Origin: a virus | DNA length: 64,000 nucleotides | Virus record (IMG/VR): IMGVR_UViG_3300005466_000024 | Location: 64,001-128,000 of that record | Strand: one strand, 5' to 3' | Shown: positions 1,687-45,913 of the stretch, in pieces | Layout: every line of letters begins with the position of its first letter | Numbering within the stretch: the stretch's first letter is position 1 | Position numbers and translations under genes: made by a program | The notes under the pieces: model-generated | Database searches by the model: none | Seen by the model: only the letters and a program-made list of their open reading frames with translations | Told to the model about the DNA's origin: nothing

Positions 1687-4545
1687 CTAAATGAACAGCG
1701 CGCTGTCGTTGCTGGGGTCGGTGGCCGCGTACCGCACGTTCGAGGGAGCCGTGCGAGGTGAGGTCAGGCCGGGTGGGATGCGCCCTGCGGCACCAGAGGC
1801 CGCGGCCAGGCGCCGGGAGGCGCTGCGGGCGCGGGTGGCGTTGGCTTGCGCCACCGCCTCCAGGAGTCGGGTGCGGTCCACGATCGTGGCGTGGCGCATC
1901 TGCTGGGCCTGGGCGACCAGCTGCCATTTGTCCTCGTAGGGCAGGCCGCTGTTGATGTAGGCCTCGGCGTAGCGCACTGCCGCGACCGCGTCGGCCTTGC
2001 GGTTGAAGGAGGCGGCCCGTTCCTCGCGATCGGAGGTGCCGCCGCCTTCCCCGGGCGCCCAGATCTGCGAGTTGGTGGACAGGTCGGGTTTGGCGACACT
2101 GTCGCCCGCGTTCTGCCCGAACTCGCCGATGTCGTACTGGCTCTGCTGGGCCCGCTGATCGGTGGTGTCGTTGACCGGTGCCTCCACGTCCACCCGCTCA
2201 TCCGGCGCTGCAACTTCCAGCGATTCGTTGGCACGGCGATCCATGGCTTCCCTCCTGTCGACCTCAGCCCTTCTGGCCCGCCGCAGAAAAACTTCCAGCG
2301 CGGGGAACATGGCCTGCAGGGGGACGCCCGACGCTTCGGCGTAACGAGCCGCCTGGCGCCGAACGAAGTTGGGGTGGTGTGCGGTGGCCGACCGGCCGGT
2401 GGTGGCGCGCATCCAGTCGTCGAATGCCGCGAACGCGCGCACCGAGGCGTCCTTGGGTTGGGTGGAGTCGCTGACCAGTTCGACGTCGGTGAAGTCGTGG
2501 CCCTTGATGTCCTGGTCGTCGGTGCCGCTCAGCGGCGGGTCGAGCACCCGGGAGTCGGTGGTGGCTTCGGCGGCGGTGCGACGACGAGAGTCCTTGTCCC
2601 ACGGGAACTTTTTGTCGTCGTCCTTGTCCTTGTCGTCCTCGTCGTCGTCACTGCCGCACTCGTCGGAACCGGTGAGTGCGCGGTAGGCCTGGATGTCTCG
2701 TTCGAGGTCGACCGAACGACCCCGGATGCGTCGGCGCAGCGAGGCCACCAGGTTGTCGGGGGTGTTGGTGATCTTGGAATCACCGTCCCTGGGCGCTTCG
2801 ACGGCCTCGCCGCCGGGGGTCTGGCTGACGTACACCGGCTCCTGCTCGCCCTGGTCGTTGTCGTCGGTGTGGTAGGGGCCGCCCTCGACGTCGCCCGATC
2901 CGTCGGAGTCGGCGAAGTGCTGCTGGGGCGCCTTGGCGTGCCGGGAGGCCTGCACGACCCGCTCTGTCAACCCGCTCATGCGATGTGCCTCCTTGGACGG
3001 CTTTCTCTTTTCCTTGCGGTTGGCCGCAACCTGTTGCTGCAGTGGCTCGTCGTCGTCACCGAACGCCTGCTCGGCCTGCTGCAGGTCGCCCTCGGCTTCC
3101 TGCAGCAGCTCCGCGTCGGACTTGCCACTGCCATCTCCGCTGTCGCCGGAGTCGTCCGAGTCGCCGTCATCGGAGCCGGAGTCGTCGTCCTCGTAGTCGC
3201 CGTCGTCGGACTCGTCGGAATCCGATGTGTCGTCCTCGTCGCCGTCGGAGTCGTCGGAACCGTCGCTGTCGGAGTCGTCGTCCTCGGCCAGCCATGGCGG
3301 CAGGCCCTTGCCGTCGTCCTCCTCCGCGAAGACGTAGCGCCTCCCGGTCCGCGGGTCGATGAGGATTTGCGGGCGCTCGGCGTAGTCGGCAGAACGCTCG
3401 TGGTTACGGCGCTGCTTGGTGCGGGCCATGTTTCCCCTCCTCAGCCGGGGGTCTTCGGGGTCGACGTCCTCGACGTCTTCGGCGCGGCGGTCGGCGTCTA
3501 ACCCTTCTTCTTCCTGTTCGCGGTCGAGTTGCTTGGTTCGCGACAGGTCGGGGGTGCGCAGTTCCTTCGGCGACCGGATGGTCTGCTGGAACGGGACGTC
3601 GTCCTGTTCCTCGTTCTCCCACGGCGTGATGAACTGGTAGTCGCCGTCATCGAGGTCTTCCCGGCGCAGCGTGTCGATGTCCTCGGGAGCCTCCACCTCG
3701 CCGTACCCTCGCCGCTCGGTGCCGCCTTCGTGGTGGCGACGTCTCTTCTCCTCGAGTTCGGCGTCGAGCTGGTCGAGGAACTTGTCGGGGTCGAAGTAGT
3801 CGCGGATCCGCTGCCGCAGTCGGCTCGGGTGCTCCTCCTCCGGGGGCAGCTCCTTGATGGTGCGGTAGTCCCAGCCTTCGCGGTGGCCTGGCTGACGGCC
3901 GGCGGCGATCACCCGGCTGACCAGCGCGGTCTCGTCGGCCGGGTCGAACACGTACGACAATTCGAAGAACCCGAGTTTCTCGCAGATCTCGTGGACCGGT
4001 TCGACACGCCCGGTGCGCGGGTTGTACAGTTTCTCGCCCTTGCGGGCCGCGACGTGCTCGCAGAATTCTGGTTCGTCGGTGGCCCGGTTACCGCAATGGC
4101 TGCAGATGGTGACCGCGCACTCGACGCCCATCGACACCGAGTCCAGCCCGCCTTCGCGAATCTCCTTGGCCAGCTTGGGGAATCGCTGGGCGTCGACCTC
4201 CATGATGGTTTCGATGTACCGGTCGTCCCCGGCCTCGACGTAGCGCGCGGCGATGACCTTACCGCGGGCCTTTTTCCAATCTTCATTGGTATGGTTTACG
4301 AAGATCGGTTTCCCGATGAATGACCTGTAGCTCTTTTTCAATTCCTCGGAGGGCCAGGCGTCGTAATTCTGATTTATCCTGGCGGTTATCGCCCGAACTT
4401 GCGAGTACAGGAATCCTGGTTTCGGTGCCCAATTTCTGGCTATCGCGGCATGCTTCTGCCCGTGATATGCCATCAGTACTTGTTTGACGCCATCAACGGA
4501 AAAATGCCGCGATGACCCCGTCTTGATCGGGCGAACTATCGACAT
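1687..4545 (-). CDS. Capsid maturation protease fused to scaffolding region
   Basis: N-terminal ~215 aa have a prohead-protease-like pattern (KPIFVNH...RGKV...DSVSMG...FFELSYVFDPAD) with a CSHC/CEH Zn-ribbon insert; long acidic low-complexity C-terminal part; lies upstream of decoration and capsid genes. Confidence 0.7.
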   Translation of the reverse strand: MSIVRPIKTGSSRHFSVDGVKQVLMAYHGQKHAAIARNWAPKPGFLYSQVRAITARINQNYDAWPSEELKKSYRSFIGKPIFVNHTNEDWKKARGKVIAARYVEAGDDRYIETIMEVDAQRFPKLAKEIREGGLDSVSMGVECAVTICSHCGNRATDEPEFCEHVAARKGEKLYNPRTGRVEPVHEICEKLGFFELSYVFDPADETALVSRVIAAGRQPGHREGWDYRTIKELPPEEEHPSRLRQRIRDYFDPDKFLDQLDAELEEKRRRHHEGGTERRGYGEVEAPEDIDTLRREDLDDGDYQFITPWENEEQDDVPFQQTIRSPKELRTPDLSRTKQLDREQEEEGLDADRRAEDVEDVDPEDPRLRRGNMARTKQRRNHERSADYAERPQILIDPRTGRRYVFAEEDDGKGLPPWLAEDDDSDSDGSDDSDGDEDDTSDSDESDDGDYEDDDSGSDDGDSDDSGDSGDGSGKSDAELLQEAEGDLQQAEQAFGDDDEPLQQQVAANRKEKRKPSKEAHRMSGLTERVVQASRHAKAPQQHFADSDGSGDVEGGPYHTDDNDQGEQEPVYVSQTPGGEAVEAPRDGDSKITNTPDNLVASLRRRIRGRSVDLERDIQAYRALTGSDECGSDDDEDDKDKDDDKKFPWDKDSRRRTAAEATTDSRVLDPPLSGTDDQDIKGHDFTDVELVSDSTQPKDASVRAFAAFDDWMRATTGRSATAHHPNFVRRQAARYAEASGVPLQAMFPALEVFLRRARRAEVDRREAMDRRANESLEVAAPDERVDVEAPVNDTTDQRAQQSQYDIGEFGQNAGDSVAKPDLSTNSQIWAPGEGGGTSDREERAASFNRKADAVAAVRYAEAYINSGLPYEDKWQLVAQAQQMRHATIVDRTRLLEAVAQANATRARSASRRLAAASGAAGRIPPGLTSPRTAPSNVRYAATDPSNDSALFI

Positions 4546-4548
4546 CAG

Positions 4549-39532: not shown

Positions 39533-40276
39533 TTAGCGCGTGAAGGGCCGCAGCTGCAGCCTGATCTGGTGGTCGGGGGCCACCGCCCCGTCGGGGGCGG
39601 TGCCCCGGTGGTAGTGCCTCTGCCAGCCCTCGCCCGACGCTGCGAACGCGGCGTGGAACGCGTCACGGCTCTTGCACCACGCCGCGTTGGCGCTGGCTAG
39701 TTCGGGGTCGTCGGTGATCGGCCGGATCCGTGGGGTGAATTCCTCGAGTTCGCCGCGACGCACCGGCATGATCATCGTGATCGGTTCGCCCTTGTAGAAG
39801 GTGACCCAGTGCCCGGGCCGGGTGATCTGCCAGTTCATCGTGAACGTCGCTGGTGTCCAGTCGGTCTCCACCAGACCCTCCAGCGCCGCGATGCCGTCCT
39901 TGGGCCTGTTGGCCGGGCCGCGCACCAGCAGGTTGTAACCGGGTGGGGTGCGAAACAGCCAGGGCAGTGTCCACGTCACAATGCCCTGACCGAAGTGTGA
40001 TGCCGGGTAGCAGTACTCCGGGTTGGCCACCGGGTTGTCGCGGTCCGTCTGCATGGCCTGCATCTCGATGTCGGTCCGCAGGGGGCTACCGTTCCAGCGC
40101 ATCCGTACGGTGGCCGGGCAGGAGATCAGCCAGCCGGCCTGGTTGGCCATCAGCATCGGCAGGCACCGGTAGGCGTGCCGGTCGTGGGTGGTGTCCATCC
40201 AGTCGCGCCGCGGCGGCGCCGGGGTCAACGCGAACCCTTCGGCGGGCACCGTTTCGTAGGCGATCAGCTCGCTCAT
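39533..40276 (-). CDS. DUF6065-family protein
   Basis: PAP.RRDWMD....HAYRCLPM.MANQAGW...FRTPPGYNLLVRGPAN...LEGLVETDW...FTMNWQIT; ATGA coupling. Confidence 0.75.
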   Translation of the reverse strand: MSELIAYETVPAEGFALTPAPPRRDWMDTTHDRHAYRCLPMLMANQAGWLISCPATVRMRWNGSPLRTDIEMQAMQTDRDNPVANPEYCYPASHFGQGIVTWTLPWLFRTPPGYNLLVRGPANRPKDGIAALEGLVETDWTPATFTMNWQITRPGHWVTFYKGEPITMIMPVRRGELEEFTPRIRPITDDPELASANAAWCKSRDAFHAAFAASGEGWQRHYHRGTAPDGAVAPDHQIRLQLRPFTR

Positions 40277-41007
40277 CCGGGGCTGCACAGCTCCTGGGGC
40301 AGCGGGATCTCTGCGACGGTCGATGACCACTGTTCGCGGGTGTCGACCAGCCAGGCGGTGCGCCGCTGGTCGCGCGGGTAGCCGTCGGCGCGCTCCTCGA
40401 TCAACGATGGGCCGTCGCTGTGGTCGAGCAGGGAGGGGCGGCTGTAGGCCACCCGGTGTCCGCACTCGAGTGTCCAGTCGCTGACTGCCTCGTCCAGTGG
40501 CCGCGTGCTGCTGCGCAGGTGGGCCACCAGGTCGGGGATCAGGGCGGTGCGCACGGCGTAGCCGACGCCGTGCAGCAGGTGCCCGCAGACCAGGAAATTG
40601 GGGTCCTCGGCACCGGGCAGCCCGTTGTTGGGCCAGATCACTCGCGCGATGGGGCGCTGCCAATGGGGAGGATTCCCGCGGCCCAGGTACAGGCTGACCA
40701 CGTCGGTGGGGGCGACACGTAGCACCTGGGTGAGCTGGTCGCCGAACCCGTCCACCGCGAGGGCGTCGTCCTCGAGCACCACGCCCCATTCCGTGGTGCT
40801 GTCGGCGAGCCATTCCCAGGCGTCGGTGTGGGTCGGTGTGCAGCCTTGATTCACGCTGTCCCAGATGATCGCCTCGGGTTCGACTTGTTCGGCGAGTGTG
40901 CGCACGAGGTCTTCTCGTAACGGGTGGGCGACGATCACCAGGGAGTACGGGGATTCGACCGGCACATCCTGGATGATCGCCTCGAATTCGGTCGTCAGTT
41001 CTGCCAT
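40273..41007 (-). CDS. Glycosyltransferase (GT-A, GT25-like)
   Basis: H..AWEWL...WGVVLEDDA motif; HGVGYAV; PSLLDH.DGPS. Confidence 0.7.
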   Translation of the reverse strand: MAELTTEFEAIIQDVPVESPYSLVIVAHPLREDLVRTLAEQVEPEAIIWDSVNQGCTPTHTDAWEWLADSTTEWGVVLEDDALAVDGFGDQLTQVLRVAPTDVVSLYLGRGNPPHWQRPIARVIWPNNGLPGAEDPNFLVCGHLLHGVGYAVRTALIPDLVAHLRSSTRPLDEAVSDWTLECGHRVAYSRPSLLDHSDGPSLIEERADGYPRDQRRTAWLVDTREQWSSTVAEIPLPQELCSPG

Positions 41008-41085
41008 ACCCTTTCCCGTTGGGCATTACCGGGTGGCGTAACGGGTGCTCCCCATTCGCGCGTGGGAAAGGGAGACCACCGGAGA

Positions 41086-41117
41086 TGCGGTCGGGGTGGT
41101 TGAGCACCCCGACCGCA
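41086..41117 (-). terminator. Hairpin immediately after the Ro60 stop
   Basis: Perfect 13-bp stem TGCGGTCGGGGTG / CACCCCGACCGCA with a 6-nt loop. Confidence 0.65.
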
Positions 41118-41121
41118 CGCC

Positions 41122-42810
41122 TTACACGCGGCTTGCCGAGAAGTCCGCGATCAGCTGCGGCACGGTGGAGTCGAAGCCCGAGATGTCCATCTGCCGCAGC
41201 GGATCCCGGGGGTCGCACACGCTGGTGCCGGTGGCAGTCATGGCGACGACGACCAGCTTGGCATCGATGCCCATCTTCTGACGGTACTGCTCCAGCGCCT
41301 GGTACGGGTGGACGTCCCCAGCCCAGGTCTCGTTGTCGGTCCAGACCGTGAAGGTGTCGATCGCCACCTTGTTGGCCGCCGCCCACAGCATCGGCAGGGC
41401 CACGTCGGTGCCCCCGGCGGACAGCTGGCTGATGTAGCGGACCACATCGTCCAGCCGACGGCGGGGACTGATGTCCAGCTCGGTGAGGCCACGGCCGCCC
41501 CGGCCGATACCCCTCTGCCACCCACCCGAGCAGAAGCCGGCCACCCGGTAGTCCTTCTCGGTGTTGGCGGTCACCAGGGAGATGGCCGCGCACGCCTCCC
41601 GCGGCGCGAGTGGCAGGCCCGAGCAGTCCAACCAGTCCGCCACCTTGCCCGCCATCGACAGCGACACGTCCAGCGCGATCAGGGTGCGCTTGTTGGCGGG
41701 TTCCACCGCGCCGTAGGACGCGTAGAACGCGGCATCGAGCGCGTCGGTGATCCGGCGATGCGGTGTCCAGTTCAGCTTGCCCTTCTCGCCGTGGCCCTGG
41801 GCGTAGGTCTTCTGCGCCACCAGCACGTCGACCGGGTGCACGCGGGCCCGCTTGAGCACCTCGGGGTTCTGCAGCTGATCGGCAACCAGCTTCATCGTGC
41901 CCGAACCCAGGTTCAGGTTGGTGATCCGCGGCAGCTGGCGCAGCAGCGCGGTCTGCGGCAGGGTGTGGCTGATCAACGACTCCCAGACCAGCGCCTCGTT
42001 GAGGTACTCGTCGGGGATCATCTCCCAACTGATGTTGCCGTTGTCGTTGAGCACCGCGAGCACGTCGCGCACATGGGTGGCCGACCGCAGTCGCCGATAG
42101 GCCTCGACCAGTTCGGGCAGCGGGGTGTCGACCGGGTTGCCATACAGATCCCGGCCCTCGCCGTGGGCCTTGCGGCGGGTGCCGGCGCTCGGGCTGGTGG
42201 CCGCCAGCCAGTTGTACAGCGCGTTGTGCGCGGCATCGCCGACCGGGTGGGCCTGGCGCAGCACGTCGTCGTGGCGCATGTTCTCCCGGTTGCGGTACTT
42301 GAGCACCTGGTAGGCGACTTGGTCGACGGGCTTCTCGTTGTACCAGCGGGCGATGGCCTTGACGAACGCGGGGCCCCAGCCGCGGAACTGTTCGGCGTAC
42401 TTGATGAACGTGAACAGCGTGGAACCGGTTCGCGCCACCTGGGGCAGCACCGCCAGGGCGGTGCGCCGGGCGTCGTCAGTGCCGTGGCTGGCCGCAACGG
42501 CCAGAGCGAACAGCGCCGGGTTCTGCTTGGGGGCACGGCCAGCCACGGAGATCTCAACGATGTGGTTGATGACCTTCACCGGGTCGGCGGCTATCGCGCG
42601 GAACAGCACGTCGGCGTTCTCGCGGGTCAGATCCTTCGCCGACGTGTAGTACGTGGAATCGGCCGTGCCCAACGTCAGGAACCGATGCAGCCTGGCTTCG
42701 TCGCTGATCTCGAAGACGTAGCCTCCGGCAGCGTTTTGCACCTGCTCGAGGCGCGCCTTCTGGTGTTGCGGCGTGCTACGGGTGCTGATCGAAGTCAGGA
42801 TATCGGCCAT
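41122..42810 (-). CDS. rsr: Ro60/Rsr RNA-binding protein (TROVE + vWA)
   Basis: VQNAAGGYVF...RLHRFLTLGT...KYRNRE...MIP...LLRQL...ARVHP...ALDVSLSM...GGTDVALPM...VWTDNETWAG...D.SGFD. Confidence 0.95.
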   Translation of the reverse strand: MADILTSISTRSTPQHQKARLEQVQNAAGGYVFEISDEARLHRFLTLGTADSTYYTSAKDLTRENADVLFRAIAADPVKVINHIVEISVAGRAPKQNPALFALAVAASHGTDDARRTALAVLPQVARTGSTLFTFIKYAEQFRGWGPAFVKAIARWYNEKPVDQVAYQVLKYRNRENMRHDDVLRQAHPVGDAAHNALYNWLAATSPSAGTRRKAHGEGRDLYGNPVDTPLPELVEAYRRLRSATHVRDVLAVLNDNGNISWEMIPDEYLNEALVWESLISHTLPQTALLRQLPRITNLNLGSGTMKLVADQLQNPEVLKRARVHPVDVLVAQKTYAQGHGEKGKLNWTPHRRITDALDAAFYASYGAVEPANKRTLIALDVSLSMAGKVADWLDCSGLPLAPREACAAISLVTANTEKDYRVAGFCSGGWQRGIGRGGRGLTELDISPRRRLDDVVRYISQLSAGGTDVALPMLWAAANKVAIDTFTVWTDNETWAGDVHPYQALEQYRQKMGIDAKLVVVAMTATGTSVCDPRDPLRQMDISGFDSTVPQLIADFSASRV

Positions 42811-42837
42811 TGTCGATTTTTCTCCCTCTGGATTCGG

Positions 42838-42978
42838 GGTGTGGGCATCGATAGGTGAGCACCGGGAACCCTTTCGGGCACTTGCTCTGCCAACTGAGCT
42901 ACGGGGCCGGGGCCCCGGCAGGATTCGAACCTGCGACCCAGTGATTAACAGTTAACCGATGTTCGTCCGGCTCACACC
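42838..42978 (-). ncRNA. yrlA: Y RNA 1 (YrlA-type; permuted tRNA-Asn-like domain)
   Basis: Ends pair GGUGUG/CACACC; internal order: loop CUGUUAA, T-arm GCAGG-UUCGAAU-CCUGC, closed acceptor CGGGGC..GCCCCG, D-arm GCUC-AGUUGGCA-GAGC; adjacent to rsr. Confidence 0.9.
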
Positions 42979-42992
42979 GTCTTCAGTTTTGG

Positions 42993-43128
42993 GGATGCGG
43001 GCATCCATTGGCGCCGACCGGGTTTTAGCGACTTAGGCCACTCGTCCATACCTGTTCCCAGGCAACGGGATTTGAACCCGTGTCTCTCTCTTGCAGGGAG
43101 ATAACCAATCAACTTCCGGCTCGCATCC
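42993..43128 (-). ncRNA. yrlA: Y RNA 2 (YrlA-type; permuted tRNA-Cys-like domain)
   Basis: Ends pair GGAUGCG/CGCAUCC; CCUGCAA loop, T-arm ACGGG-UUCAAAU-CCCGU, acceptor UGCCUG-GGAA-CAGGUA, D-arm GAC-GAGUGGCCUAA-GUC. Confidence 0.85.
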
Positions 43129-43138
43129 AACGTTAGGG

Positions 43139-43213
43139 GGTGCAGGCATCCATGTAGTGACTCCCGGGGGGTATCTTCACATTAGATAACCGAGTGTCAT
43201 TCCGGCTTGCACC
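43139..43213 (-). ncRNA. Y RNA 3 (short, no tRNA domain)
   Basis: GGUGCAAGCCGGA...UCGGUUA...AUGGAUGCCUGCACC; same terminal stem motifs as Y1 and Y2. Confidence 0.75.
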
Positions 43214-43234
43214 GATATCCAATTCTTGTGCAGA

Positions 43235-43302
43235 GAGCAGGCATCCATAGACGAGACCGAATTTTCGTGGCTGGAAGGTAACCGATCTCATGCGGCTTGC
43301 CC
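43235..43302 (-). ncRNA. Y RNA 4 (short, no tRNA domain)
   Basis: GGGCAAGCCGC...UCGGUUA...AUGGAUGCCUGCUC. Confidence 0.7.
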
Positions 43303-43361
43303 CCTGTGGCATCGTCGACCTTACTGCTTTCGGTCACCGACCACCAACTTCTTTTCCGCGT

Positions 43362-43775
43362 TCAGCGGGTCGCCGTTCTCCGCTTCAAGCATTCCCGGTG
43401 GATCTTGGTGAAGGTTTCCGCGTCGGGGTCGGGTTGCCACGAGTCCGTGTCGAGGATCACGTGTCCGCACCCGCTGCACTGGTCGCCGGTGATCGGCACC
43501 GACGCCACCGTAGTGGGCGGATTCAGGGACTCCCCGCCGCGCCGGCGTGACTCGAACGGACTGTCCCCGTCGTGGGGCATCCGCAGGGATGACACCTTCT
43601 CGCGGGCACTCTGCGCCCGGGCCACTGTCTGGGCGCGCCACCCGGCGTAGGCTGCCGCCTCGTCACCGTCGTAGAAGCGACACACCTCACGGCTGCCGCC
43701 CTCCCCCTTCACCTCGTAAACCCCGTGGCGCAGACCGCCCTCGTAGGGGTCACTGATCACCGTGTACTGAGTCAT
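43362..43775 (-). CDS. Hypothetical protein
   Basis: 137 aa, C-terminal CxxC...HxxC; SD GGAGG. Confidence 0.55.
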   Translation of the reverse strand: MTQYTVISDPYEGGLRHGVYEVKGEGGSREVCRFYDGDEAAAYAGWRAQTVARAQSAREKVSSLRMPHDGDSPFESRRRGGESLNPPTTVASVPITGDQCSGCGHVILDTDSWQPDPDAETFTKIHRECLKRRTATR

Positions 43776-44913
43776 TGCCCACCTCCACCCCTTCCAGCAG
43801 CTCCACGTAGCGCGGCTTCAGGCTGTCCCAGCTGTGCCGGTGCGCCCAGTCCCGCGCCGCGGCTTGGCCATCGACGAACAGGGTCGCGTCGGTGGCGAAC
43901 TCGTCGATCTTGGCGGCCAGCATCCGTGGATCGACCTCGAAGACGTCGATCCACACACGGGTCAGCAGTCGGTCGACCTTTCGTGAAGGTACGGCCCAGG
44001 TACGCCGCGCGTGCGCCTGGGCGTACACGTCGTGGGCACCGAAGATGACCGGCATGCCAGCCGCCATAGCCTCTTGACATGGAAGGGATAAGCCAGCGAA
44101 TCGTCTGGGCGCCACCAGTACGTCCTGTCCCTCGTACAGTTCCTCGTAGCAATCGACATCATTCTCTTCGACCACCATTTCCACGTTGGCGGGCAATCGC
44201 ACCTGCGTAGCTCTCACGAGCTGGTCGATGTATCCCGGTAGCAAACACCTGAACGTGATCGTGATCTCGGACTTCACATGGGGCAGCGCCCGCAACACGT
44301 CGGTCGTGCCGCCCCTGTCCTTGACCGCTGGTCTACCTGCAACATGCAAAAATGCTGTAGCATGACTGTGGTTGCCATATGGTGCGGTCGGTTGGTTACG
44401 GTGGGCTAAGGCCTGGCTACTTTGAGGTTGCCCCCGAGCTTGCTCGGGGGCAACTTTCTGAAACCGTTCGGTGGCCACCGGCACCGGCAGCAAGATCTTG
44501 GGTTCCGGCAGTTGGTCCCATAGCCACGGTCCCGGCGCACAAAACAGATCAGGCCGCGGCAGGTTCGTGTTCTGTATGTGATCGCAGAACTCGGGATTCA
44601 CGTGAAGTAGGGTTCTTATCCCGCGTTCACGCGCCGATCGCACCAAATCCCAGGTATAAAACGTTTCCGCACTGTAAACGACATCCAATCCGTCCAGGAA
44701 TTCGTTGATCTGCCCGGTAGTGGGATGCCATCCCTTGATCACCTGGGCGTCAGGATAAGTAAAAACCCGCCTCTTGTTGCAATTGTCGGCTTTGTTGTAG
44801 AGGTCCGATACGTCGATCTCCAATATCTTGTCGGGATGAAGATGGGCATACATTTCATATGTCTGTATCCCCAACCCGGAGCAATCGTTACGCGCTATCA
44901 GGCCCCACGTCAT
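43750..44913 (-). CDS. Glycosyltransferase (GT-B)
   Basis: GLIAR.D.SGLG.QT...YSAETFY...FLHVAGRPAVKDRGGT...PRRFAGLSLPCQEAMAAGMPVI. Confidence 0.8.
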   Translation of the reverse strand: MTWGLIARNDCSGLGIQTYEMYAHLHPDKILEIDVSDLYNKADNCNKRRVFTYPDAQVIKGWHPTTGQINEFLDGLDVVYSAETFYTWDLVRSARERGIRTLLHVNPEFCDHIQNTNLPRPDLFCAPGPWLWDQLPEPKILLPVPVATERFQKVAPEQARGQPQSSQALAHRNQPTAPYGNHSHATAFLHVAGRPAVKDRGGTTDVLRALPHVKSEITITFRCLLPGYIDQLVRATQVRLPANVEMVVEENDVDCYEELYEGQDVLVAPRRFAGLSLPCQEAMAAGMPVIFGAHDVYAQAHARRTWAVPSRKVDRLLTRVWIDVFEVDPRMLAAKIDEFATDATLFVDGQAAARDWAHRHSWDSLKPRYVELLEGVEVGNDSVHGDQ

Positions 44914-45209
44914 TTGTTTTCCGGCCGCCAGGAGAACCATTCGTCGAGCGCCTGGGATAGGTTCACGTGGCCACCGCCCTGCATGGAGGTGAACTCGTCG
45001 CCGCGGGTCCAGCTCAGCCCGTTGAGTAGGCCGGCGTGGTTGTACCCGACCTCGATCTGCTTGTCCAGCTCGGGTTGTCTGAGGATCAGTGGCTCGCGGG
45101 AGACCACCACCCAGCCGTGTTTGGCGCCGCGTTTGACGAGCCGGTCCTTGTCGGCATCGACTCGCAGCTGGCCCACCGGGCGTGGTTTGTCGTCTGGATT
45201 CACGGGCAT
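44910..45209 (-). CDS. Hypothetical protein
   Basis: 99 aa; SD AGGAG; ATGA coupling. Confidence 0.55.
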   Translation of the reverse strand: MPVNPDDKPRPVGQLRVDADKDRLVKRGAKHGWVVVSREPLILRQPELDKQIEVGYNHAGLLNGLSWTRGDEFTSMQGGGHVNLSQALDEWFSWRPENK

Positions 45210-45913
45210 TTCGGGTCTCCTGCACGGCCGTCGAGGTGGTATGAGCGTTGCATATTGGGGCCAGGATTGTAGAGGTGCACGCAGTATTGGTTCCACCCTG
45301 CCATCCCGTAGGTCTTGTAGGCGTCGGCCAGCACGCCGTGCATGACGTCTTCGATGAATCCGTGTCGCCCGTCGAGGTGGTCGGCGTGGATGCGCCGGTA
45401 GAACGCCAGGCTGGCGACGTGCGGGCGCTGCGACCACTGGCTGGTGCGGATGAAGCCGCTGTCGTCGCCGTGCACCATGTGTTCGTGATCGGGCAGGATC
45501 TGCGATTCGTGGTGCAGGCGCACGCAGTTGGATCGCCCGCTGGACACGAATCCGCTGATCAGGTCGAAGTCGATGTGCTCGTCGATGACCATGGGGGTGT
45601 CCTGTTCGACGTAGGCCACGAGGGGGGTTTCCACGAGGTTCAGTGCGTGCGCCAGCATGCCGATTTGGTGGTGGTGTTCATCGAAGATTATCGGGCAGAT
45701 GTTGCCGTAGTGGTGGTCGGCCAGCCACAGGGCGTTGGCGATGTGTTCCTCGTAGGCCTGGCGGCGGTGTTCCAGGTGCGGCGCGGCACCGTCGAAGGTC
45801 AGGATGATCTCGGCGTCGGGCAGCCAGTGGCGCACCGAATCGAGGGTTTCGGTGAGGATCGCGGTGTCGGGGTGACTGGGGATCGGGCTGACCGGGACGA
45901 TGGCGGTGATCAT
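45200..45913 (-). CDS. Glycosyltransferase (GT-A), paralogue 1
   Basis: ITAIVPVSPIPSHP...IILTFDG...AYVEQD...WSQRPHVA. Confidence 0.75.
   Translation of the reverse strand: MITAIVPVSPIPSHPDTAILTETLDSVRHWLPDAEIILTFDGAAPHLEHRRQAYEEHIANALWLADHHYGNICPIIFDEHHHQIGMLAHALNLVETPLVAYVEQDTPMVIDEHIDFDLISGFVSSGRSNCVRLHHESQILPDHEHMVHGDDSGFIRTSQWSQRPHVASLAFYRRIHADHLDGRHGFIEDVMHGVLADAYKTYGMAGWNQYCVHLYNPGPNMQRSYHLDGRAGDPKCP

Follow-up and report, generated by a model that had tools for sequence, protein, structure and literature searches.

A phage locus that most probably encodes four tandem Y RNAs upstream of its Ro60 gene

INTRODUCTION

Ro60 and its noncoding partners, the Y RNAs, are conserved from bacteria to humans. 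The genome of an uncultured soil phage raises the question of what is encoded directly upstream of a viral Ro60 gene (rsr). The locus lies in a 64,000-nucleotide stretch, hereafter the window, which corresponds to positions 64,001 to 128,000 of the virus record IMGVR_UViG_3300005466_000024 (180,705 bp; IMG/VR; judged complete). An original prediction, made by a model from the letters of the DNA, had read the region as four Y RNAs, two built from different permuted tRNAs and two minimal. Here, we report that the stretch most probably does encode four Y RNAs. Their family membership, their fold, their uniqueness in the genome and their linkage to Ro60 are described below, whereas binding to Ro60, processing and recruitment of effectors are proposed by analogy with characterised relatives.

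Bacterial Y RNAs have a GNCGAA-type motif on the 5' side, which is thought to contact Rsr, and a conserved YUAY sequence (Chen et al. 2014, PMC4201824). In YrlA, the stem-loops V, T, AS and D mimic tRNA; the acceptor stem is closed and the anticodon stem is formed by the flanks (PMC4201824). YrlA's tRNA-like domain was solved by Wang et al. (2018, 10.1101/312249), according to whom most YrlAs are "circularly permuted tRNAs"; YrlA of S. Typhimurium is said to lack the anticodon loop (10.1101/312249). YrlA and YrlB of M. smegmatis are bound to Rsr and are processed from one precursor upstream of rsr (PMC4201824), and the Ro60 protein of Thermus phage phiLo binds two upstream Y-like RNAs and forms complexes with the host PNPase (PMC12135203).

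RESULTS

Four units with a common scaffold precede rsr

The array occupies positions 42838 to 43306, and its order in the 5' to 3' direction on the minus strand is Y4, Y3, Y2, Y1 and rsr:

43231 to 43306 (core 43234 to 43303), minus strand: Y4, predicted minimal Y RNA of about 70 to 76 nt
43139 to 43213, minus strand: Y3, predicted 75-nt minimal, YrlB-like Y RNA
42993 to 43128, minus strand: Y2, predicted 136-nt YrlA-type Y RNA
42838 to 42978, minus strand: Y1, predicted 141-nt YrlA-type Y RNA
42822 to 42829, minus strand: Shine-Dalgarno-like AGAGGGAG, 11 nt 5' of the rsr ATG, read from the sequence
41122 to 42810, minus strand: rsr, 562-amino-acid Ro60 ortholog with TROVE and Ro60-vWA domains

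Thus, the strand, the coordinates and the sizes of the predicted units (141, 136, 75 and about 70 to 76 nt, separated by spacers of 10 to 21 nt) were confirmed. The 3' end of Y1 is 27 nt away from the ATG of rsr, on the same strand, and the stop codon of the upstream open reading frame (ORF) is 15 nt away from Y4. Promoter-like sites and minus-strand terminator-like sites were found neither in nor around the array. Cotranscription with rsr, as had been proposed, is plausible given the tight gaps, the lack of a promoter or terminator match and the precedent of M. smegmatis.

All four units share one scaffold, consisting of a terminal helix P1, a GCCG(G/C)A bulge, a second helix P2 and the sequence GGUUAYC. 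P1 differs in sequence from unit to unit and always pairs (GGUGUG/CACACC, GGAUGCG/CGCAUCC, GGUGCA/UGCACC and GGGGGCA/UGCUCUC); beyond these pairs, it continues with an A.C mismatch and two G-C pairs. The bulge opens with CG(G/C)A on the 5' side and closes with (A/U/C)GAU on the 3' side. P2 is formed by CAUCGG/CCGGUG, GAUUGG/CCGGUC, ACUCGG/CCGGGAGU and GAGAUCGG/UCGGUCUC, and the junction that follows it is UUA(Y/A)C. The shared ends and the internal motif on which the original prediction was built were indeed seen in all four units, in the form 5' GG..(A)GCCG(G/C)A, YGGUUA(Y/A)C and 3' (A/U/C)GAUGCC. The internal (C/U)GGUUA is, however, no new element, since it has already been published as the conserved YUAY junction; in the form GGUUA(U/A/C)C it is present in all four units of the window and is invariant in the family alignments.

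Covariance models find the four units and no others

We searched with two covariance models, R1 for minimal and R2 for long units, the seeds of which contained units of other phages and some of the units of the window. R2 was built because the length limit of R1 keeps that model, even when unfiltered, from covering the long units. R1 gave 57.6 bits for Y3, 48.1 bits for Y4 and 36.3 bits for Y2. R2 gave 110.9 bits for Y2, which is a member of its seed, and 73.4 bits (E value of 1e-15) for Y1, which is not; Y3 and Y4 scored 27.0 and 19.7 bits. Neither model found a site beyond Y1 to Y4 in the 64-kb window or in the whole 180,705-bp genome. The check with new models that had been suggested therefore returned exactly the four sites of the array.

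The fold is supported by covariation and by variation between populations

The long units can be described by a six-helix structure made up of P1, P2, a hairpin X, a T arm, an acceptor hairpin (AS) and a D arm. No close relative of the phage was found, the highest Ro60 identity being 43% in IMG/VR and 55% among cultured phages. Because this makes covariation between orthologous units impossible to assess, covariation at the level of the family and variation between strains were used instead. When 11 long units of six phages were aligned with MAFFT, 93.1% of the cells were paired, versus 34 to 46% in slid controls; compensatory double changes were present in 27 of the 36 pairs, and the observed values were attained in none of 500 shuffles. 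A second set comprised 94 independent units that were not part of the seed and that had been picked in IMG/VR by a DNA pattern independent of Ro60. When these were aligned by R2, 92.6% of the cells were paired (37 to 44% in slid controls) and 34 of the 36 pairs had double changes. Since the latter alignment was fitted to the R2 model, the MAFFT result is the cleaner test. Covariation of the terminal stems among relatives had been named as a check, and in both alignments all six helices, including P1, were found to covary.

The DNA of this phage recurs in several rhizosphere and soil metagenomes, and a variant haplotype of Y4, distinguished by eight transitions, is present on contigs from two further rhizosphere samples. 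Two of these, at 43288 and 43254, jointly convert an A-U pair of P2 to a G-C pair and are thus compensatory, and a third one, at 43236, converts a G.U pair of P1 to G-C. The remaining five affect the bulges, the pyrimidine of YUAY (C to U) and the hairpin loop, which changes from CAGCCAC to CAGUUAC. Not a single pair is broken by the eight transitions. Y1 to Y3 were nearly invariant across the rhizosphere samples; Y4 was the sole unit that differed.

Y1 and Y2 contain permuted tRNA bodies

The elements of Y1 are as follows:

42973 to 42978 with 42838 to 42843, minus strand: P1
42956 to 42961 with 42860 to 42865, minus strand: P2; the GCCGGA bulge lies between P1 and P2
42945 to 42951, minus strand: open anticodon-like CUGUUAA
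42940 to 42943 (CACU) and 42879 to 42882 (AGUG), minus strand: halves of the anticodon stem
42918 to 42934, minus strand: T arm
42902 to 42917, minus strand: acceptor hairpin, closed by CCCG
42884 to 42899, minus strand: D arm
42869 to 42878, minus strand: extra hairpin CCCGAAAGGG

Y1 had been described as a complete tRNA body in the order anticodon loop, T arm, closed acceptor and D arm, with pairing of CACU and AGUG, and all of these elements were present. CUGUUAA is single stranded and is located directly 5' of UCACU, which pairs with the AGUG that follows the D arm after one A, like positions 39 to 43, 27 to 30 and 26 of a tRNA. Real tRNA-Asn genes are 92 to 94% identical to the block that extends from ACUGUUAAUC through the T arm (94% for many phage genes; also environmental contigs), and environmental tRNA genes from the same metagenomes differ from this block at three to five positions. 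These environmental tRNA contigs run on past the Y1-like block into a normal D arm; the joints thus go back, and therefore the order of the arms in Y1 is swapped relative to real tRNAs. When permuted to the tRNA order, Y1 was called tRNA-Asn(gtt) by ARAGORN at default settings. In global identity to 30 phage tRNAs, however, permuted Y1 was closest to a tRNA-Lys (0.83), followed by three tRNA-Asn (0.75 to 0.78). The same design, including the extra CCCGAAAGGG hairpin, is found in an IMG/VR phage (L008, 2198 to 2348) whose Ro protein is only 43% identical.

In Y2, whose P1 contains an A.C mismatch, the corresponding elements are the following:

43105 to 43110 with 43016 to 43021, minus strand: P2
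43087 to 43101, minus strand: closed hairpin X with the loop CCUGCAA or, in the other register, CUGCAAG
43065 to 43081, minus strand: T arm
43049 to 43064, minus strand: GGAA-capped acceptor hairpin
43030 to 43046, minus strand: D arm

Hairpin X reads UCUC-CCUGCAA-GAGA or, alternatively, forms a 5-bp stem with the loop CUGCAAG, and is followed by five bases and the T arm. The predicted layout, the same order with a Cys-like CCUGCAA loop and a GGAA-capped acceptor, was found in all its elements, and permuted Y2 was called tRNA-Cys(gca) by ARAGORN at default settings. The 30 phage tRNAs used for comparison of isotypes did not include a tRNA-Cys, and the isotype labels of both units are to be taken as soft. 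These data support that Y1 and Y2 contain circularly permuted tRNA bodies, which differ in their anticodon-like loops and in the points at which they are opened. The permuted layout is thus real in both, but the order T arm, acceptor, D arm is the published design of YrlA and not new.

Y3 and Y4 are minimal units

Y3 consists of P1, a GCCGGAA bulge, P2, UUAUC and the hairpin UCU[AAUGUGA]AGA. In Y4, P1 has up to 9 bp plus GC and P2 has 8 bp, the bulge is GCCGCA, and the unit is completed by UUACC and the hairpin UUC[CAGCCAC]GAA. Both inserts are 3-bp hairpins with a 7-nt loop, at the position that matches the hairpin of Y2. The earlier description of Y3 and Y4 as a docking scaffold with unrelated short inserts was right with respect to the scaffold, which lacks a tRNA body, but not with respect to the inserts, since each is a hairpin at the position of the Y2 hairpin.

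The Ro60 gene and its surroundings

The product of rsr matches PF05731 (E value of 1.4e-44) and PF25045 (1.5e-52) and aligns end to end with Rsr of D. radiodurans (2NVO, 1e-93) and with Ro60 of Xenopus (1YVP, 2e-93). Its nearest kin among cultured phages, at 55% identity, are the Ro proteins of Bxz1-like mycobacteriophages. No credible tRNA gene was found in the 180,705-bp genome, in which ARAGORN made just two doubtful calls. The genome is without a credible tRNA gene, RtcB or a CCA-adding enzyme, whereas the Bxz1-like phages, which have the closest Ro60, are rich in tRNAs. The cassette of Ro60 and Y units is flanked by a DUF6065-containing gene and a group-1 glycosyltransferase gene (39533 to 42028 and 43750 to 45225, both on the minus strand). 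Since the long ORF 39533 to 42028 overlaps rsr, its true start should be downstream of 41122.

Multiunit arrays are widespread in phages

Arrays of two to six units are common in actinophages and in uncultured phages. Among cultured phages, we counted three units in Bxz1, two each in Myrna, Cashline and BearBQ, six in prophiGD43A-5 and five in Trina; Mareelih has two units upstream of Ro60 and more among its tRNA genes. In 37 IMG/VR loci, which had also been picked by a DNA pattern independent of Ro60 and for which the array sizes are lower bounds, 12 had one unit, 10 had two, 5 had three, 3 had four and 7 had five. A Ro60 homolog was present in 23 of the 37 loci, and several of those without one end within the array. 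The homolog and the units were always on the same strand, and the units were upstream of it in 21 of the 23. With its four units, the array described here is therefore nothing unusual within a widespread arrangement. In the literature searched, upstream Y RNAs are described for only one or two RNAs per locus, and multiunit arrays and anticodon-like loops are, within the same literature, undescribed.

The arrays of actinophages (Bxz1/ET08-like, Myrna, Cashline, BearBQ, prophiGD43A-5, Trina, Mareelih and GMA2) share with the window the scaffold, the position 5' of the Ro gene and the mixture of long and minimal units, and units of the Y2 type whose loop resembles CUGCAA are also found in Bxz1, Cashline, BearBQ and Trina. 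They differ in that their Ro proteins are 37 to 55% identical, in that they have two to six units and in that most of these phages carry real tRNA genes, whereas the window phage has none.

Some of these units already have other names in GenBank. The "tRNA-Thr(tgt)" of prophiGD43A-5 (747 to 825 of locus L005) overlaps a Y unit found by R2 (753 to 884), and the pseudo "tRNA-OTHER" of Rhodococcus phage Trina (1643 to 1851 of locus L016) overlaps two (1563 to 1703 and 1778 to 1912); both features are probably misannotated Y RNAs. In the Gordonia phages Mareelih (L007, 3892 to 4526) and GMA2 (L017, 4188 to 5008), Y-like units are located among tRNA genes, beside a tmRNA gene and downstream of Ro60, in addition to the upstream position. 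In GMA2, a match to the Pistol ribozyme (RF02679, 56.8 bits; gathering score, 34.5) is found at 4491 to 4547, between tRNA-Trp and tRNA-Gln. In two unrelated phages, a genuine tRNA-Asn is located directly 5' of a Y unit (L012, 1408 to 1619; L016, 578 to 790), and in the former, the hairpin loop of the adjacent Y unit, CUGUUAA, is identical to the anticodon loop of the neighbouring tRNA-Asn. This adjacency hints at an exchange between tRNA genes and Y RNAs.

Comparison with known Y RNAs

Y1 and Y2 resemble YrlA (RF02553) in that they adjoin rsr on the same strand and have a 5' docking motif, albeit GCCGGA and not GNCGAA, a YUAY junction and, in permuted order, a T arm, an acceptor stem closed by a loop and a D arm; in Y1, the anticodon stem directly follows the D arm, as in the Rfam consensus. 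They differ from it in that Y1 keeps a single-stranded tRNA-Asn anticodon loop and has the extra CCCGAAAGGG hairpin, whereas in Y2, the hairpin is closed and has a 7-nt loop and the distance from the D stem to P2 is 8 to 9 nt, which allows a reading in which the tRNA body is open at position 26 and not in the anticodon loop. Y3 and Y4 resemble the YrlB or Yrn2-type RNAs of S. Typhimurium, M. smegmatis and D. radiodurans, since they are short, have the same docking module without a tRNA body and are encoded beside YrlA-type units and rsr. However, they have no sequence homology to characterised YrlB RNAs, there are two of them and not one, and their apical 3-bp stem with its 7-nt loop sits exactly at the hairpin position of the long units. 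Yrl1 and Yrl2 of phiLo are likewise Y-like RNAs directly upstream of a phage Ro60 gene, with a stem, a CGAA-type bulge and a second stem; there are two units in phiLo, the text of the paper does not use the term tRNA-like, and binding and the complex with PNPase are experimental findings for phiLo.

Several observations weigh against the assignment of the four units to the Y RNAs. In the search with the Rfam YrlA model, which had been proposed as a check, Y1 was matched with 51.2 bits (E value of 2e-10), below the gathering score of 69, and Y2 to Y4 were not matched at an E value of ≤10. The docking motif is GCCG(G/C)A and not exactly GNCGAA. Single-sequence folding energies were not significant (z of -0.7 to -2.0); support for the fold comes from the comparative data and not from folding energy. 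Neither RtcB nor a CCA-adding enzyme was found in a search of the whole genome, and thus the bacterial tie of rsr to rtcBA is missing. Finally, a 151-nt contig from a soil metatranscriptome, which is from a relative and about 92% identical, covers positions 43168 to 43287 and hence the junction of Y4 and Y3, but its ends and strand cannot be read and it does not prove transcription. Of the 64-kb stretch, the metatranscriptome run X24 covers only little, and its pieces are mostly tRNAs of other organisms.

Rfam at gathering thresholds and ARAGORN made no calls in the 64-kb window, and the Rfam tRNA model scored Y2 with 15.9 bits, below the threshold of 29. In native order, none of 118 long units was called a tRNA by ARAGORN. 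The YrlA model also stayed below threshold on every unit of cultured phages tested, the best one reaching 52 bits, and because of this, Y RNAs of phages remain unannotated or are misannotated. As for the docking motif, the position aligned with it reads GCCGGAAG, GCCGGAAUG, GCCGGACGAAC and GCCGCAUG in the units of the window, each with one extra or different base compared with GNCGAAN0-1G, and exact GNCGAA is found at the same position of the model in units of Bxz1 and Mareelih.

A D-arm-like hairpin GCCG...CGGU in the 5' module, which would represent the first tRNA of a dimer, was considered and rejected. It competes with P1 and P2, its bases are invariant, it is absent from the units of prophiGD43A-5, none of the 118 native-order units was called a tRNA by ARAGORN, and the acceptor stem of the only GenBank call, a tRNA-Thr, is poor. 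The hairpin is kept only as an evolutionary idea derived from the literature.

DISCUSSION

How the array might work

If the four units are Y RNAs, one transcript would lead from the upstream gene through the array into rsr and would be cut into four separate RNAs. Each RNA would dock on Ro60 by P1 and the asymmetric GCCG(G/C)A bulge, the local form of GNCGAA, and P2 would end in the YUAY junction. The different effector module on each RNA would then select the partner. In Y1 and Y2, the tRNA-like domain probably folds into the L shape of tRNA and probably recruits host proteins that recognise tRNA and/or PNPase to Ro60; these partners are suggested because of the analogy with the machine of Rsr, Y RNA and PNPase. 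Y3 and Y4, which resemble YrlB in this, have no module beyond a small hairpin with a 7-nt loop. Taken together, the set would supply the Ro60 ring of the phage with several alternative RNA adaptors.

Alternative explanations

It is conceivable that the array is a structured 5' leader of the rsr mRNA that acts in cis on translation or stability rather than a set of RNAs acting in trans. Indeed, it abuts the ribosome-binding site of rsr (27 nt), and promoters or terminators are not predicted within it. However, Mareelih, GMA2 and two IMG/VR loci have units downstream of Ro60 or interspersed with tRNA genes; moreover, each unit is closed on itself by its own covarying terminal helix, and the characterised relatives are discrete, Ro-bound RNAs (PMC4201824, PMC12135203). 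We therefore consider a leader very unlikely. Even less probable, and strongly disfavoured, is that the units are decayed or rearranged tRNA genes, functionless relics of a phage tRNA cluster. The tRNA-derived arms of Y1 and Y2 and the location of Y units beside real tRNAs in other phages would fit such an origin, but the genome contains no credible tRNA gene, a scaffold that is not that of a tRNA (P1, bulge and P2) is kept and covaries across about 100 phages, variation in the population leaves the pairs intact and the permuted order is constant across the units.

The hairpin after YUAY, which is closed in Y2 to Y4 and opened in Y1, allows for a further reading of what the Y RNAs do. It might mimic an anticodon arm and not a variable arm, so that the array would offer look-alikes of isoacceptors (Asn-like, Cys-like and others) as decoys, inhibitors or sensors; the targets would be host anticodon nucleases or anticodon-modifying enzymes, with Ro60 either shielding the RNA or linking it to decay. 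We regard this as possible but doubtful. A hairpin was found within 3 nt of YUAY in 108 of 128 units, and the modal loop length was 7 nt (49 of the 108 hairpins; the next, 6 nt, had 16). The 7-nt loops follow the pattern of anticodon loops, with U at position 2 in 80%, a purine at position 6 in 86% and A at position 7 in 69%. Moreover, loops recur in distant phages. CUGCAA/CUGCWAA is shared by the window phage, Bxz1, Cashline, BearBQ and Trina, CUGUUAA by Y1 and one unit of L012 (L012_a; L008 has the variant CUUGUUAA), AUGCGGA by Myrna and L012, and AUUUGGA by Cashline, BearBQ and GMA2. The segment of Y1 that leads from CUGUUAA to the T arm is 92 to 94% identical to real tRNA-Asn genes, which points in the same direction. 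Of 110 permuted long units, 59 were called tRNA by ARAGORN, compared to a mean of 36.8 with the hairpin shuffled and 0 in native order, and therefore the hairpin adds to the likeness to tRNA; the shuffled control also shows, however, that ARAGORN is lenient. Inhibition of an anticodon nuclease is not a new thought either, since YrlA was raised as a possible competitive inhibitor by Hughes et al. (2020, PMC7790460). On the other hand, Chen et al. (2014, PMC4201824) name the hairpin after YUAY, which is less conserved, the V arm, that is, the variable arm, and model P2 as the anticodon stem. The spacing does not discriminate between the two models: if P2 is the anticodon stem, the 8 to 9 nt from the D stem to P2 are unusual, and so are the 5 nt ahead of the T stem; if hairpin X is the anticodon arm, the 5-nt spacer matches a variable loop of class I, and the opening of the tRNA is at position 26. 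In addition, the stems of these hairpins are often just 3 to 4 bp long, the loops of Y3 and Y4 (AAUGUGA and CAGCCAC) have no U at position 2 and a U-turn loop is a generic stable motif. Decoys or inhibitors with anticodon-like loops would thus fit the loop statistics and the idea of Hughes et al. (2020).

Significance

For the window itself, the value of the finding is mainly that of a correct annotation. Beyond it, this locus and about 100 relatives indicate that phages routinely encode several Y RNAs per Ro60 gene, that the current Rfam model misses the Y RNAs of phages, some of which GenBank labels as tRNAs, and that the supposedly variable hairpin bears a strikingly anticodon-like loop in recurring classes. 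Candidates that can be cultivated, such as Bxz1 in M. smegmatis, Cashline in Gordonia terrae and Trina in Rhodococcus, could be used to probe the purpose of tRNA mimicry, be it recruitment of PNPase or interference with tRNA-directed defences of the host. Tentatively, and with rather more reserve than for the Y RNA assignment, phage Ro60 arrays may be libraries of anticodon-arm mimics in which the V-arm hairpin displays isoacceptor-specific loops, with which the phage would titrate or sense tRNA-targeting defences or hijack anticodon-modifying enzymes. If this were true, the Y RNAs of such arrays would be living intermediates that back the proposed origin of Y RNAs from tRNA transcripts.

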